Below are positions 16,817 through 59,830 of a stretch of DNA of 64,000 bases, piece by piece. Origin of the DNA: a phage. Every line of letters starts with the position of its first letter. Positions within the stretch are counted from its first letter, which is position 1. A program made the position numbers and the translations under genes. Where the stretch lies: the sequence record OZ335962.1, one strand, 5' to 3'. A model generated the notes under the pieces. It had not been told where the DNA came from, made no database searches, and saw only the letters and a program-made list of their open reading frames with translations.

Positions 16817-17844
<1,028 letters not shown>

Positions 17845-22672: not shown

Positions 22673-25600
22673 ATGGCCGAGATTAAAAGAAAGTTCAGAG
22701 CAGAAGATGGTCTGGACGCAGGTGGCGATAAAATAATCAACGTAGCTTTAGCTGATCGTACCGTAGGAACTGACGGTGTTAACGTTGATTACTTAATTCA
22801 AGAAAACACAGTTCAACAATATGATCCAACTCGTGGATATTTAAAAGATTTTGTAATCATTTATAATAATCGTTTTTGGGCAGCAACGGATAATATTCCA
22901 AAACCTGCTGGAAGTTTTAATAGAATTCGTTGGAAAGCATTACGTACTGATGCTGTATATACAACCGTATCATCTGGACCGTATCAATTAAAATCCGGAG
23001 AAGCAATTTCAGTAGATACGTCAGTTGGTAATGACATTGAGTTTACTTTACCACCTTCTCCGCTCGATGGAGAAACAGTAATAATTCAAGATATCGGTGG
23101 AAAACCTGGTATAAATCAGGTTAAAATAAGTTCTTCAAATCAGAGCATTGTTAATTTTAGAGGTGAACAAGTACGTTCAGTTTTAATGACTCATCCAAAG
23201 TCACAGATGATATTCATTTTTAATAATCGTTTGTGGCAAATGTATGTTGCTGATTATAGCAGAGAAGCTGCAATTGTTACTCCATCGACTGCGTATCAAG
23301 CACAATCTAATGATTTTATCGTGCGTAGATTTACTTCCGCAGCGCCGATTAATATTAAACTTCCGAAATTTGCTAATCATGGCGATATTATTAATTTCGT
23401 TGATTTAGATAAATTAAATCCTCTTTATCATACAATTGTCACGACATATGATGAAACAACTTCAGTACAAGAAGTTGGAACTCATTCCATTGAAGGCCGT
23501 ACATCGATTGACGGTTTCTTGATGTTTGATGATAGTGAAAAATTATGGAGATTGTTTGACGGGGATAGTAAAGCACGTTTACGTATCATAACGACTAATT
23601 CAAACATTCGTCCAAATGAAGAAGTTATGGTATTTGGTGCGAATAACGGAACAACCCAAACAATTGAGCTTCAGCTTCCAACTAATATTTCTGTTGGTGA
23701 TACTGTTAAAATTTCCATGAATTACATGAGAAAAGGACAAACAGTTAAAATCAAAGCTGCCGGTGAAGATAAAATTGCTTCTTCAGTTCAATTGCTGCAA
23801 TTCCCAAAACGCTCAGAATATCCACCTGAAGCTGAATGGGTGACTGTTCAAGAATTAGTTTTTAACGGTGAAACTAATTATGTTCCAGTTTTACAACTTG
23901 CTTATATAGAAGATTCTGACGGAAAATACTGGGTTGTACAACAAAACGTTCCAACAGTTGAAAGAGTTGATTCTTTAAATAATTCTACTAGAGCAAGATT
24001 AGGCGTAATTGCTTTAGCTACACAAGCCCAAGCTAACGTCGATTTAGAAAATTCTCCACAAAAAGAATTAGCAATTACTCCAGAAACATTAGCTAACCGT
24101 ACTGCTACAGAAACTCGTAGAGGTATCGCAAGAATAGCAACTACTGCTCAAGTAAATCAGAACACTACATTCTCTTTTGCTGATGACCTTATCATCACTC
24201 CTAAAAAGCTGAATGAAAGAACTGCTACAGAAACTCGCAGAGGTGTTGCTGAAATTGCTACGCAGCAGGAAACTAATACAGGTACTGATGATACTACAAT
24301 CATCACTCCTAAAAAGCTTCAAGCTCGTCAAGGTTCTGAAACATTATCGGGTATTGTAACTTTTGTATCTACCGCAGGAGCTACTCCAGCCTCTAGTCGT
24401 GAATTAAATGGTACAAATGTTTATAATAAAAATACTAATAATTTAGTTGTTTCGCCTAAAGCTTTGGATCAGTATAAAGCTACTCCAACACAACAAGGCG
24501 CAGTAATTTTAGCAGTTGAAAGTGAAGTAATTGCTGGACAGAGTCAAGAAGGATGGGCAAATGCGGTTGTAACGCCAGAAACGTTACATAAAAAAACATC
24601 AACTGATGGAAGAATTGGTTTAATTGAAATTGCTACGCAAAGCGAAGTTAATACAGGAACTGATTATACTCGCGCAGTCACTCCTAAAACTTTAAATGAC
24701 CGTAGAGCAACTGAAAGTTTAAGTGGTATAGCTGAAATTGCTACACAAGTTGAATTCGACGCAGGCGTCGACGATACTCGTATCTCTACACCATTAAAAA
24801 TTAAAACTAGATTTGATAGTACTGATCGTACTTCTGTTGTTGCTCTGTCTGGATTAGTTGAATCAGGAACTCTCTGGGACCATTATACCCTTAATATTCT
24901 TGAAGCAAATGAGACACAACGTGGTACACTTCGTGTGGCTACACAAGTTGAAGCTGCTGCAGGAACATTAGATAATGTTTTGATAACTCCTAAAAAGCTT
25001 TTAGGTACTAAATCTACTGAAGCGCAAGAAGGCGTTATTAAAGTTGCAACTCAAGTTGAAACTGTTACTGGAACGTCAGCAAATACTGCTGTATCTCCAA
25101 AAAATTTAAAATGGATTGTGCAGAGTGAACCTACTTGGGCAGCAACTACTTTGGTAAGAGGTTTTGTTAAAACTTCATCTGGTTCAATTACATTCGTTGG
25201 TAATGATACAGTTGGTTCAACACAGTCATTAGACTTGTACGAGAAAAATAGCTATGCAGTATCGCCATATGAATTAAACCGTGTATTAGCAAATTATTTG
25301 CCGTTAAAAGCAAAAGCTGTAGATAGTAATTTATTGGATGGTCTAGATTCATCTCAGTTCATTCGTAGGGATATTGCGCAGACGGTTAATGGTTCACTAA
25401 CCTTAACACAACAAACGAATCTGAGTGCCCCTCTTGTATCATCTAGTACTGCTACGTTTGGTGGATCAGTTTCGGCAAATAGTACATTAACTATTTCTAA
25501 TACTGGAACAGCAACTCAATTGATTTTTGAGAAAGGACCTCAAACTGGAACGAACCCAGCGCAGACGATGACTGTCAAAGTGTGGGGAAATCAATTTAGT

Positions 25601-57219: not shown

Positions 57220-57738
57220 TTAATAACCTCGGTCTTGACGAGCGAAGTTTTCGGCATTTTTTAGATAATAAAGTTTAAAGATTTCTTCAGCCGTAAGACC
57301 GAGACCTTGGAACATGTTCAGAACGAAATGAAGAATATCAATCATTTCGAATTTAATTTCCAACTGGTCTTGCGGAGACAAATCAGTAATTAGAGTTTCA
57401 CGGCGTTCACCGTGTTGAGCTTTCCAAGGCTTCCATACAGCGGATGCATCTTTTTCACCATTGCTCATACCACCAAGAGAAGTCAGAAGTTCGCGGAATT
57501 CATCATCAATATAATCTTTCTGATTACGCAACCAATCAACAACTTCGCCTGCGGTAGCCAAATCATCAGGATGACGGTTATATTCAGGTTTATCTTTAGC
57601 TAAACGAACCTGCAGAGATTTCTGCATATCAAGCATAACCTGCAGCGGGTCTTTTTCATCACCGAGAATATCCCAGTATTCATTTTGAGCTTTATCAGCG
57701 CCTTCGATCAGTTGTGAACATTCATTAAAGTAAGCCAT
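57220..57738 (-). CDS. 56: dCTPase / dCTP pyrophosphatase (MazG-like)
   Basis: 171 aa from MAYFNECSQLIEGADKAQNEYWDILGDEKDPLQVMLDMQ, matching T4 gp56 from memory; SD AAAGGAAAA. The track's 31-codon extension was trimmed. Confidence 0.9.
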   Translation of the reverse strand: MAYFNECSQLIEGADKAQNEYWDILGDEKDPLQVMLDMQKSLQVRLAKDKPEYNRHPDDLATAGEVVDWLRNQKDYIDDEFRELLTSLGGMSNGEKDASAVWKPWKAQHGERRETLITDLSPQDQLEIKFEMIDILHFVLNMFQGLGLTAEEIFKLYYLKNAENFARQDRGY

Positions 57739-57809
57739 TATTTTTCCTTTCAATTCATGGGTTAGTAGATTAATTATACAATAAATATATAAAGCAATAA
57801 GGAGGATAT

Positions 57810-58010
57810 ATGGTACAAAAATTAATGGCACTTGTAGATGCCATAAAAGGTAATAAAAGACGTATAGCTTTTACTATTTCTGCTATGGTAGGAATTTTAC
57901 TTTGGAATTTTGTTTTATCGCCAGTTGCTATTGCTCATGGTGTTAGTATTCCAGTAATTACTCTCGATACATTCGTAGATTTAGCATTTGCTTTAGTTGG
58001 GTTAATTTAA
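57810..58010 (+). CDS. small hydrophobic membrane protein (66 aa) on the opposite strand to the surrounding early genes
   Basis: ATG with strong SD GGAGG at 5-nt spacing; two predicted TM segments. Sits between gene 56 and gene 61. Confidence 0.45.
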   Translation: MVQKLMALVDAIKGNKRRIAFTISAMVGILLWNFVLSPVAIAHGVSIPVITLDTFVDLAFALVGLI

Positions 58011-59035
58011 ATCTTAGCATATTTAGATAGCCGCATTTTGGCCATCAACCCTTGGGCAATATTATTTTTCATATATTCCATAATTTGTTCAGGGGTTGCA
58101 CCTTCCTTTCTAATCATATCATTAACATCTTTTGATTTCCAGGGAGATTTGTCCCAAAACATAACCCTTTCTCCTGCATCAACCAATTTAGTCATTCGTT
58201 TAATAGTATCAGGGTGACGAGGTTCATTATCTAAAACCCATACACGTCTATCTTTAAATGGAACAATTTCTAGGTCTAATTGACCACCCGTAATAGCTAT
58301 ACCATTTTCAATAAAAAGTGAATCTATAGGTCCTTCTAGAACATATACATCACCATCTTTGACTCGTTCAACTCCATAAATTTTTGTTGCCTCAGGATAA
58401 GCTTTGATTGTGATATATTTTTGAGGAGCATCTTTCTTTAATGCACGCCCTTGAAAAGACTCAGCTTTTCCATTAGCATTATAAATTGGAATAACAAGAC
58501 GAGGCTCAGGTATTTCCTTTTTATATGTTCCTGGCGCTATACTATTAACTAATTTAGGCCATTCGGTTGTAAACCAAAGATATTTCCATTTATCCTTTGG
58601 AATACAACGAGCTTTTACATATTTTATAATTGGATGGTCTTCCGCCAGTTTATCTAATCTAATGCATGACGGAAGAGATTTAATTATTTTCTTCTCAGGC
58701 TGCTTAGGAAGTTCTTTAGGTTTTTCTACTGGACGACTTTTACCTTTTTCTTTTCTTATTTCAAAGATATACTCACGATATAAATCAGGTTCAAACTCCT
58801 TTAAATATATTCCGATTGGTGCATGATAGTTACAGTTATAACAATGAATATTTCCTTCATTATTATCACCATAATACCATCCACGGGCTTTATTTTGGTC
58901 GGTTTTTGAATCTCCACAAACAGGGCATCTAAACCGTAATTTAAAAGTTGAACTATTATTTACTTGTGCGAATTTAGGTAAATGAGCCAATGCACGGTAT
59001 GCAAACTCATTATCAATCCAAGGTATTGATGACAT
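58007..59035 (-). CDS. 61: gp61 DNA primase
   Basis: 342 aa, same length as T4 gp61; N-terminal zinc ribbon CPVCGDS...CYNCNYH and a Toprim-like core. Confidence 0.9.
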   Translation of the reverse strand: MSSIPWIDNEFAYRALAHLPKFAQVNNSSTFKLRFRCPVCGDSKTDQNKARGWYYGDNNEGNIHCYNCNYHAPIGIYLKEFEPDLYREYIFEIRKEKGKSRPVEKPKELPKQPEKKIIKSLPSCIRLDKLAEDHPIIKYVKARCIPKDKWKYLWFTTEWPKLVNSIAPGTYKKEIPEPRLVIPIYNANGKAESFQGRALKKDAPQKYITIKAYPEATKIYGVERVKDGDVYVLEGPIDSLFIENGIAITGGQLDLEIVPFKDRRVWVLDNEPRHPDTIKRMTKLVDAGERVMFWDKSPWKSKDVNDMIRKEGATPEQIMEYMKNNIAQGLMAKMRLSKYAKI

Positions 59036-59203: not shown

Positions 59204-59830
59204 TTAACCTCTATTCATAAAAGCATTAAAAATTTGGTCATCAATAGAAACATTTACTTTAGACTGTTTTTCTGATGGTAATTCATATCCACATATTACA
59301 ATTTTGTGATCAATATCAAAATACACAGAAGCAATATGATTAATGATGTTTTCAGTAAAGTCTAAATCAACATCAATATCTTTTTGACCACAGCCCAAAG
59401 GATAAATAATGCGAGTAATTCGATTATCTTTAACAAAGATTCCACCGACATACTCTGTGCTGCGTTTAAAATCTACACGCCGACGAAATGAAAAATATTC
59501 AGGCTCTTTATGAGCTCTGCTCATAGGACACAACGAGTAACTAGAATAAGAGATGTCAAATCCTACGCCTTCAATATGAGCCAAAGTATCATGATTAAAC
59601 CAATTATAATCGTACGCCAAATCCATTAGATCATAATATGTAAAAGGCACTGGATTAACATCATTAGTCACAAGCACGTAATTAGCAATTGCTATAATTT
59701 CATTGTTTTTAACGAATACAAACCGTGATTGATGGGAATGACCTGGACCCGCGTTTTCACGATTAATGATATAACACTGAGCACCTTTATATTTGTATGT
59801 ATCTTTACACTTGTGCATTTGATAGAGCAT
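59204..59830 (-). CDS. hypothetical early protein
   Basis: 208-aa ORF. Confidence 0.5.
   Translation of the reverse strand: MLYQMHKCKDTYKYKGAQCYIINRENAGPGHSHQSRFVFVKNNEIIAIANYVLVTNDVNPVPFTYYDLMDLAYDYNWFNHDTLAHIEGVGFDISYSSYSLCPMSRAHKEPEYFSFRRRVDFKRSTEYVGGIFVKDNRITRIIYPLGCGQKDIDVDLDFTENIINHIASVYFDIDHKIVICGYELPSEKQSKVNVSIDDQIFNAFMNRG

Follow-up and report, generated by a model that had tools for sequence, protein, structure and literature searches.

The short interval between gene 56 and gene 61 of this phage holds a single small ORF on the strand opposite to all of its neighbours and raises two questions: whether this ORF is a genuine gene, and whether it stands in place of dam, which lies between the same two genes in T4. 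The window analysed here, that is the whole stretch of 64,000 nucleotides from sequence record OZ335962.1, is a segment of a T4-type (Tequatrovirus) genome. Gene 56 (57220..57738, minus strand) encodes the dCTPase/dUTPase, a nucleoside triphosphate pyrophosphohydrolase (PHROG 173 at E 1e-46 and Pfam dUTPase_2; annotated as gp56 in relatives), and gene 61 (58007..59035, minus strand) encodes the DNA primase (PHROG 47 at E 9e-107; about 98% identical to T4 gp61 by reading both translations). Between the two lie 71 intergenic bp and one 66-codon plus-strand ORF (57810..58010), which is convergent with gene 61 (stop at 58007-58009) in such a way that the two stop codons share 4 nt (TTTAAA). A sequence-only reading of this interval had described one plus-strand 66-aa ORF with a strong Shine-Dalgarno sequence, opposite in strand to all neighbours, and this description proved accurate: the quoted translation is exact, the Shine-Dalgarno sequence AAGGAGG (57799-57805, plus strand) stands 4 nt before the ATG, and the neighbouring genes are all on the minus strand over at least 53.4-62.4 kb. 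In Shigella phage sb3, a close relative with a complete genome that is 96-98% identical to the window over the full window length and that has the same 56 / ORF / 61 order, the 66-aa ORF is the sole plus-strand CDS among the first 160 CDS.

With T4 Dam as the query, tblastn returned no homolog in the 64-kb window (best E 6) or in the complete sb3 genome (best E 0.99). The earlier claim that the interval between genes 56 and 61 lacks dam is upheld, a dam homolog was not detected elsewhere in either sequence, and from these searches it is very likely that dam is missing from the whole genome of this phage. A second methyltransferase was also considered and rejected, the scan of long ORFs in the window and sb3 for [DNS]PP[YFW] having returned incidental matches only. 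Similarly, GATC avoidance was rejected as a sign of lost methylation: GATC occurs at 0.38 of expectation but CTAG at 0.39, and the depletion is unspecific.

Within the window alone the ORF fills the slot of T4 dam, and the sequence-only reading had the ORF there "instead of" dam, which would make it an acquisition in place of dam specific to this phage. The comparison with relatives refutes such a replacement. T4 itself has both genes; its copy of the ORF (NC_000866 17738-17938, plus strand) lies between dam and gene 61, is 92% identical to that of the window and overlaps gene 61 by 4 nt in the same manner. ORF and dam are likewise side by side in L013-type and T2-type phages, practically all Tequatrovirus records contain the ORF as against about one third with dam, and other dam-less genera carry the ORF too. 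T4-type Dam was found in about 182 phage records (at least 90% identity) as compared to about 500 Tequatrovirus records with the ORF, with about two thirds being without Dam. The dam-less order 56 / ORF / 61, which is found in T6, VR7, Mosigvirus, Dhakavirus and about two thirds of the Tequatrovirus records, is the majority state of sequenced T-even phages. T4 Dam, an N6-adenine methyltransferase for GATC, and the 66-aa protein are unrelated and have the genomic slot alone in common.

Mapping of the junctions by blastn of the window against L013 and T4 located the empty site of dam at 57759..57798: in place of this 40-nt stretch, L013 has about 1.47 kb (dam together with a 186-aa ORF) and T4 about 0.93 kb (dam together with a remnant). 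Dam in T-even phages is an accessory cassette between the middle promoter of gene 56 and the putative late promoter of the 66-aa ORF, and the window has the empty cassette site, like T6 and most sequenced relatives.

The 186-aa ORF precedes dam on the early strand with a 4-nt overlap in L013 and about 155 records including T2. It belongs to PHROG 8706, a family with no assigned function, contains the motif D72 ... E85-x-K87 and gives weak matches to Pfam DpnII (E 0.0045, below threshold) and PADLOC REase_II (E 1.5e-4); in T4, a 540-bp deletion leaves about the last 28 codons. The sequence comparison suggests that T-even Dam is the methylase component of an accessory cassette akin to a restriction-modification system, and outside T4 dam is usually accompanied by this putative restriction-endonuclease-like partner.

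The neighbourhood of genes 56 and 61 is also an insertion hot spot. A homing endonuclease gene is located between the ORF and gene 61 in Yersinia phage vB_YenM_P8 (L007 1780-2547), and HNH/homing endonucleases or extra soc-like genes enlarge the region in Killian, JE01, WL-3, ime09 and others. Gene 61.2 is full length in the window (208 aa; 59204-59830, minus strand) and shortened to 357 nt in sb3 (23280-23636), and the blastn alignment of the window with sb3 is interrupted at this gene (window 59249-59828).

The sequence-only reading had named conservation of the small ORF at this locus in other T-even phages as an outcome that would refute it, and the ORF turned out to be conserved there. 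By tblastn it is present in 693 phage records, including T4 and T6, and is intact, with a coverage of at least 80%, in 686 of them. About 503 of the matches are at least 80% identical, and about 502 records have a gp61 at least 95% identical to that of the window; given the agreement between these two numbers, essentially every Tequatrovirus carries the ORF. The encoded protein matches the profile of PHROG 2024 at E 8.8e-30 (residues 2-66 onto profile positions 1-65 of 65). This family, which has no assigned function, is that of RB32 ORF030w and VR7ORF033w, and the window copy agrees with the family in length, locus, orientation and motifs, its differences amounting to a few residues. Family members are 63-66 aa in length, hundreds of them are labelled "hypothetical protein", and the best database match of the window's protein is that of BF15 (97% identical).

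The ORF occupies the same position in the same orientation in EC121, W143, T4, T6, VR7, mar005P1, P8, JS98, Roth51 and sb3. It is annotated in the Gaprivervirus VR7, as VR7ORF033w, "similar to RB32 ORF030w", and T6, Yersinia phage P8 and a Mosigvirus have it in the same place and orientation. Profile searches additionally brought out two unannotated homologs, one in Dhakavirus JS98 (EF469154; L020 2526-2726, minus strand) with a 4-nt overlap with gene 61 and one of 63 aa among the candidate ORFs of Klebsiella phage Roth51. Judged by these searches, the ORF is conserved across the hmC-type T-even phages and near relatives, i.e. Tequatrovirus (T4, T2-type, T6), Mosigvirus, Gaprivervirus, Dhakavirus and a Klebsiella T4-like phage. 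It is absent where genes 61 and 56 directly abut, as in Pseudotevenvirus leN and Krischvirus G5211, and is not at the locus in one Karamvirus (AS6). Its absence in these phages argues that there is no universal requirement for the ORF among T4-like phages. A profile search of 1.84 billion proteins matched 7 cluster representatives, demonstrating that the family is narrow; six of these are short (proteins or fragments, 44-72 aa) and we take them to be of the same family, and the seventh is a marginal match to a 1255-aa protein. A fold search of BFVD returned the family itself and two weak matches to 63-aa proteins of T4-like phages, A0A6B9Y0M4 (Enterobacter phage CIP9) and A0A873WJ41 (25-27% identity, Foldseek E 0.06-0.12), and nothing else. 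Both matches suggest that the family may reach into some Karamvirus phages.

The annotation of the T4 reference genome NC_000866 has gene 56, dam (16846-17625), an unannotated gap of about 310 bp and gene 61. The exact T4 66-aa sequence was found in a large protein collection from raw assemblies only and has no NCBI accession or name. The annotators of phage W143 used Swiss-Prot T4 names where these exist and named the ORF after a hypothetical protein of another phage. This naming, combined with the T4 sequence, indicates that the ORF is unannotated in T4 and not absent from it. T6 differs in another respect: ATT replaces the ATG start codon found in all other copies (AP018814, L008 1501-1503), and the T6 annotators placed the CDS start at Met6. 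The ATT codon may reflect weak or N-terminally shortened expression in that laboratory strain, which perhaps makes little of the full-length product or can do without it.

The way in which the ORF has changed suggests that a protein is being conserved. In 14 pairwise comparisons within and between genera, dN/dS is 0.18-0.36 (Nei-Gojobori); between genera synonymous change has reached saturation, and among the codon positions the second has changed least. The length, the hydrophobic pattern and the motifs survive down to 25-50% identity, the conserved motifs being AIKG with a basic cluster, WNF, P38, H/Q-G, P48 and D/E-x-x-V. Moreover, the ORF is kept even where it does not adjoin gene 61, the two being set apart by a gap of 207 bp in VR7, by the homing endonuclease in P8 and by a bidirectional GC hairpin in Roth51. 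This persistence and the evidence for selection imply that a constraint from the neighbouring gene or an antisense constraint alone is insufficient to explain the conservation and, on these comparative data, we conclude that the 66-codon ORF is a genuine protein-coding gene.

Alternatively, the ORF could be untranslated and the locus conserved for its nucleic acid, i.e. as a terminator of gene 61, as a pair of back-to-back promoters or as the source of a late antisense RNA that dampens primase synthesis. In line with this possibility, codons 6-12 of the ORF contain a terminator-like hairpin of the early strand with a T-run (57815..57844, minus strand; ATGGCAT..loop..GTGCCAT), located between the end of gene 61 and the middle promoter of gene 56, where it would function as a terminator. 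Also, the ORF and the stop of gene 61 have 4 nt in common, and past the end of the ORF we saw no terminator on the plus strand, from which it follows that any late transcript would be antisense to gene 61; transcription of both strands at different times is established for some sites in T4 (PMC2988020). However, the hairpin is kept in 5/5 Tequatrovirus loci folded and is absent from the other genera, and we therefore rejected it as a family-wide trait; in T6 and L013 its stem is longer through a synonymous ATA-to-ATC change. The low dN/dS in the face of saturated synonymous change, the retention of length, hydrophobic pattern and motifs, the conservation of the Shine-Dalgarno sequence in all homologous loci and the survival of the ORF after loss of contact with gene 61 all speak against an untranslated ORF, and an antisense role could add to coding without replacing it. 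We consider it very improbable that the ORF is untranslated and favor the model in which it encodes a protein.

How would this protein be expressed? The Shine-Dalgarno sequence upstream of the ORF, present at every homologous locus, is itself preceded in the window by a late-promoter-like element, AATAAATA (57780..57787, plus strand), which departs from the T4 late consensus TATAAATA by an A at -13; its end and the ATG are 22 nt apart, and AT-rich sequence lies between it and the Shine-Dalgarno sequence. T4 late promoters consist of the 8-bp TATAAATA element with no -35 element, 32 of the 50 listed are perfect while 9 of the 50 have A at -13, the commonest variant, and late transcripts can be of either polarity (Geiduschek and Kassavetis review, PMC2988020). 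The core ATAAATA and the Shine-Dalgarno sequence are kept upstream of the ORF in seven unrelated sequence contexts (window/T6 type, T4 type, L013 type, Gaprivervirus, Mosigvirus, JS98 and Roth51). The distance from ATAAATA to the ATG is 16-22 nt in the five contexts measured; in JS98 and Roth51 the heptamer lies shortly before the Shine-Dalgarno sequence. Its shuffle probability is 0.02-0.05 per context in the five contexts computed. The first base of the element is G in the T4 copy (GATAAATA, at about 17,710-17,717 of the T4 genome). In the window, the element also stands at a similar spacing before two of the three other plus-strand ORFs led by AATAAATA or TATAAATA (216 and 218 aa). The late-promoter call is weakened by the fact that the motif is short (7-8 bp), AT-rich and set in AT-rich DNA.

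The opposite strand carries a putative MotA-type middle promoter of gene 56 (57773..57798, minus strand), with the MotA box ATTGCTTTA at 57798-57790 and the -10 element TATAAT at 57778-57773 separated by a spacer of 11 nt. It is the counterpart of P(M) 16.53 (mot-box and -10), which T4 record X01416 annotates ahead of the start of gene 56/69, and would function as a MotA-type promoter. The plus-strand AATAAATA sits within the spacer of this promoter so that the two are back-to-back and overlapping; in the dam-carrying phages the middle and late elements are about 0.9-1.5 kb apart, one on each side of the cassette.

Combining these signals, we infer that the ORF is most likely a late gene, which would be transcribed late in infection from a gp55-type promoter at AATAAATA (57780-57787) and translated from its strong Shine-Dalgarno sequence. 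It would then be the lone plus-strand late-type gene within an early/middle block of about 75 kb. The late genes of T4 that depend on gp55/gp33/gp45 are alike in having a TATAAATA-type -10 element, a Shine-Dalgarno sequence and, for most of them, an orientation opposite to the early genes. By comparison, the 66-aa ORF is solitary inside about 75 kb of early/middle genes, its promoter is putative, and the T4 copy of the element reads GATAAATA. The literature searched yielded no named T4 gene, late promoter or Ribo-seq/RNA-seq evidence for this locus.

The sequence-only reading had predicted two transmembrane helices in the 66-aa protein. By hydropathy and AlphaFold, the membrane-type character of the protein stands, with one secure helix at about residues 19-42, but a second helix in the membrane (52-63) is not established. 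The hydropathy profile has one strongly hydrophobic stretch, at about residues 19-42, and the C-terminal 22 residues are moderately hydrophobic and include two Asp. The AlphaFold model (11-sequence alignment, pLDDT 76) has helices at 2-12, 16-42 and 52-63, the last being 12 residues long and containing the two Asp. The conservative reading of these predictions is one transmembrane helix with the basic N-terminus (KGNKRR) inside. The N-terminal part consists of an amphipathic helix and this basic cluster, and the putative transmembrane helix carries the conserved WNF..P..A-x-A-HG motif with the most conserved columns at its end (P38-V-A-I-A42 / H43-G44); here, every homolog retains the Pro and has small residues at -3/-1 (AIA, ALA, LVA, AAS, AST). 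We suggest that the KGNKRR segment would be in the cytoplasm, that residues from about 19 to 42 would cross the inner membrane and that the helix end (WNF..P..A-x-A / HG), like the hydrophobic tail of 24 residues that follows it, would face or re-enter the periplasmic side.

The same features could be read differently. The first 42 residues might constitute a Sec signal peptide or SAR domain, in which case the product would be a released 24-residue peptide, HGVSIPVITLDTFVDLAFALVGLI, in the periplasm or the outer leaflet. The KGNKRR n-region, an h-region at 19-37, the helix-breaking Pro38 and A-I-A at 40-42 immediately before H43-G44 are what such a signal would look like, and the retention of Pro and of small -3/-1 residues in all homologs, with conservation peaking around the junction, is consistent with this reading. 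On the other hand, the h-region (about 18-24 residues) and the n-region (18 residues) are both long and favor an uncleaved anchor, the AlphaFold helix 16-42 is continuous, and the likeness to the SAR segment of T4 RI is not significant. The last point concerns the shared ..FVLSP..A segment, for which homology to T4 RI was rejected (hhalign E 0.25, BLASTP E 0.33). The RI antiholin is, like the 66-aa protein, a small envelope protein with a single N-proximal hydrophobic segment and a signal-peptidase-like ..VLSP..A end; RI has a 70-residue soluble periplasmic domain, however, and the 66-aa protein only a 24-residue hydrophobic tail. Cleavage and release therefore appear unlikely to us, and an uncleaved inner-membrane protein is the reading that we follow below.

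Database comparisons provide few hints as to function. At a cut-off of E up to 1, Pfam returned DUF6124 alone (E 0.09), NCBIfam and PADLOC gave no match for the 66-aa protein, and Foldseek found no match for its model in the PDB. Class II holins and pinholins such as S68 of phage 21 and gp17.5 of T7 have 60-70 aa, membrane helices and late expression, and holins typically have a charged hydrophilic C-terminal tail. The 66-aa protein shares with class II holins and pinholins the size class, a membrane helix and the inferred late expression and differs from them in three respects: it matches no holin family, it lacks a charged tail at the C-terminus and its gene is not linked to that of an endolysin or spanin. 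A function as a holin or pinholin-like lysis protein would agree with a small, membrane-spanning and likely late-expressed product, and one homolog, in the UniProt entry of phage OE5505, is indeed named "Holin". However, this name is on one record as opposed to "hypothetical protein" on hundreds, no holin Pfam family was matched even at E 1, and the C-terminus is hydrophobic (..DLAFALVGLI) and not a charged hydrophilic tail. Furthermore, in sb3 the endolysin gene e is at 67.7 kb and the holin gene t at 161.8 kb, i.e. 46 kb and 140 kb away, and these phages already own the T holin, the RI antiholin and RIII. We regard a holin function as very improbable and the single "Holin" label as unsupported. 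In a comparison with type I toxin-antitoxin systems, the gene order is such that an early read-through RNA from gene 61 to gene 56 would be antisense to the ORF; there was no family match.

Taking the locus as a whole, the best explanation, and in our judgement a probable one, is that the ORF is a genuine conserved late gene for an inner membrane protein and that dam is an accessory cassette that is absent here. The feature picked out by the sequence-only reading thus exists but is unremarkable, a conserved hypothetical gene that is already catalogued and sits in its usual place. With somewhat more conviction than doubt, we suggest further that it is an overlooked late gene of T4 and its close relatives, which would produce an envelope peptide of 24-66 residues, membrane-inserted or released by signal peptidase, from a transcript antisense to the primase mRNA. 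If this is true, the peptide would have an envelope role late in infection, e.g. in lysis timing, lysis inhibition or exclusion. As to the function of the inner-membrane protein itself, a late envelope function, e.g. in lysis timing or in a membrane-linked step, is a weak guess.

For the T-even phages, these findings have two modest implications. First, annotation of the T4 reference genome passes over a gene on which purifying selection acts in several hundred relatives and which resembles a lone late gene for a membrane peptide. Second, dam in T-even phages behaves as a mobile accessory cassette, which outside T4 usually includes a restriction-endonuclease-like partner, and this recasts the question of why dam is found in T2 and T4 but not in T6 or the phage studied here.
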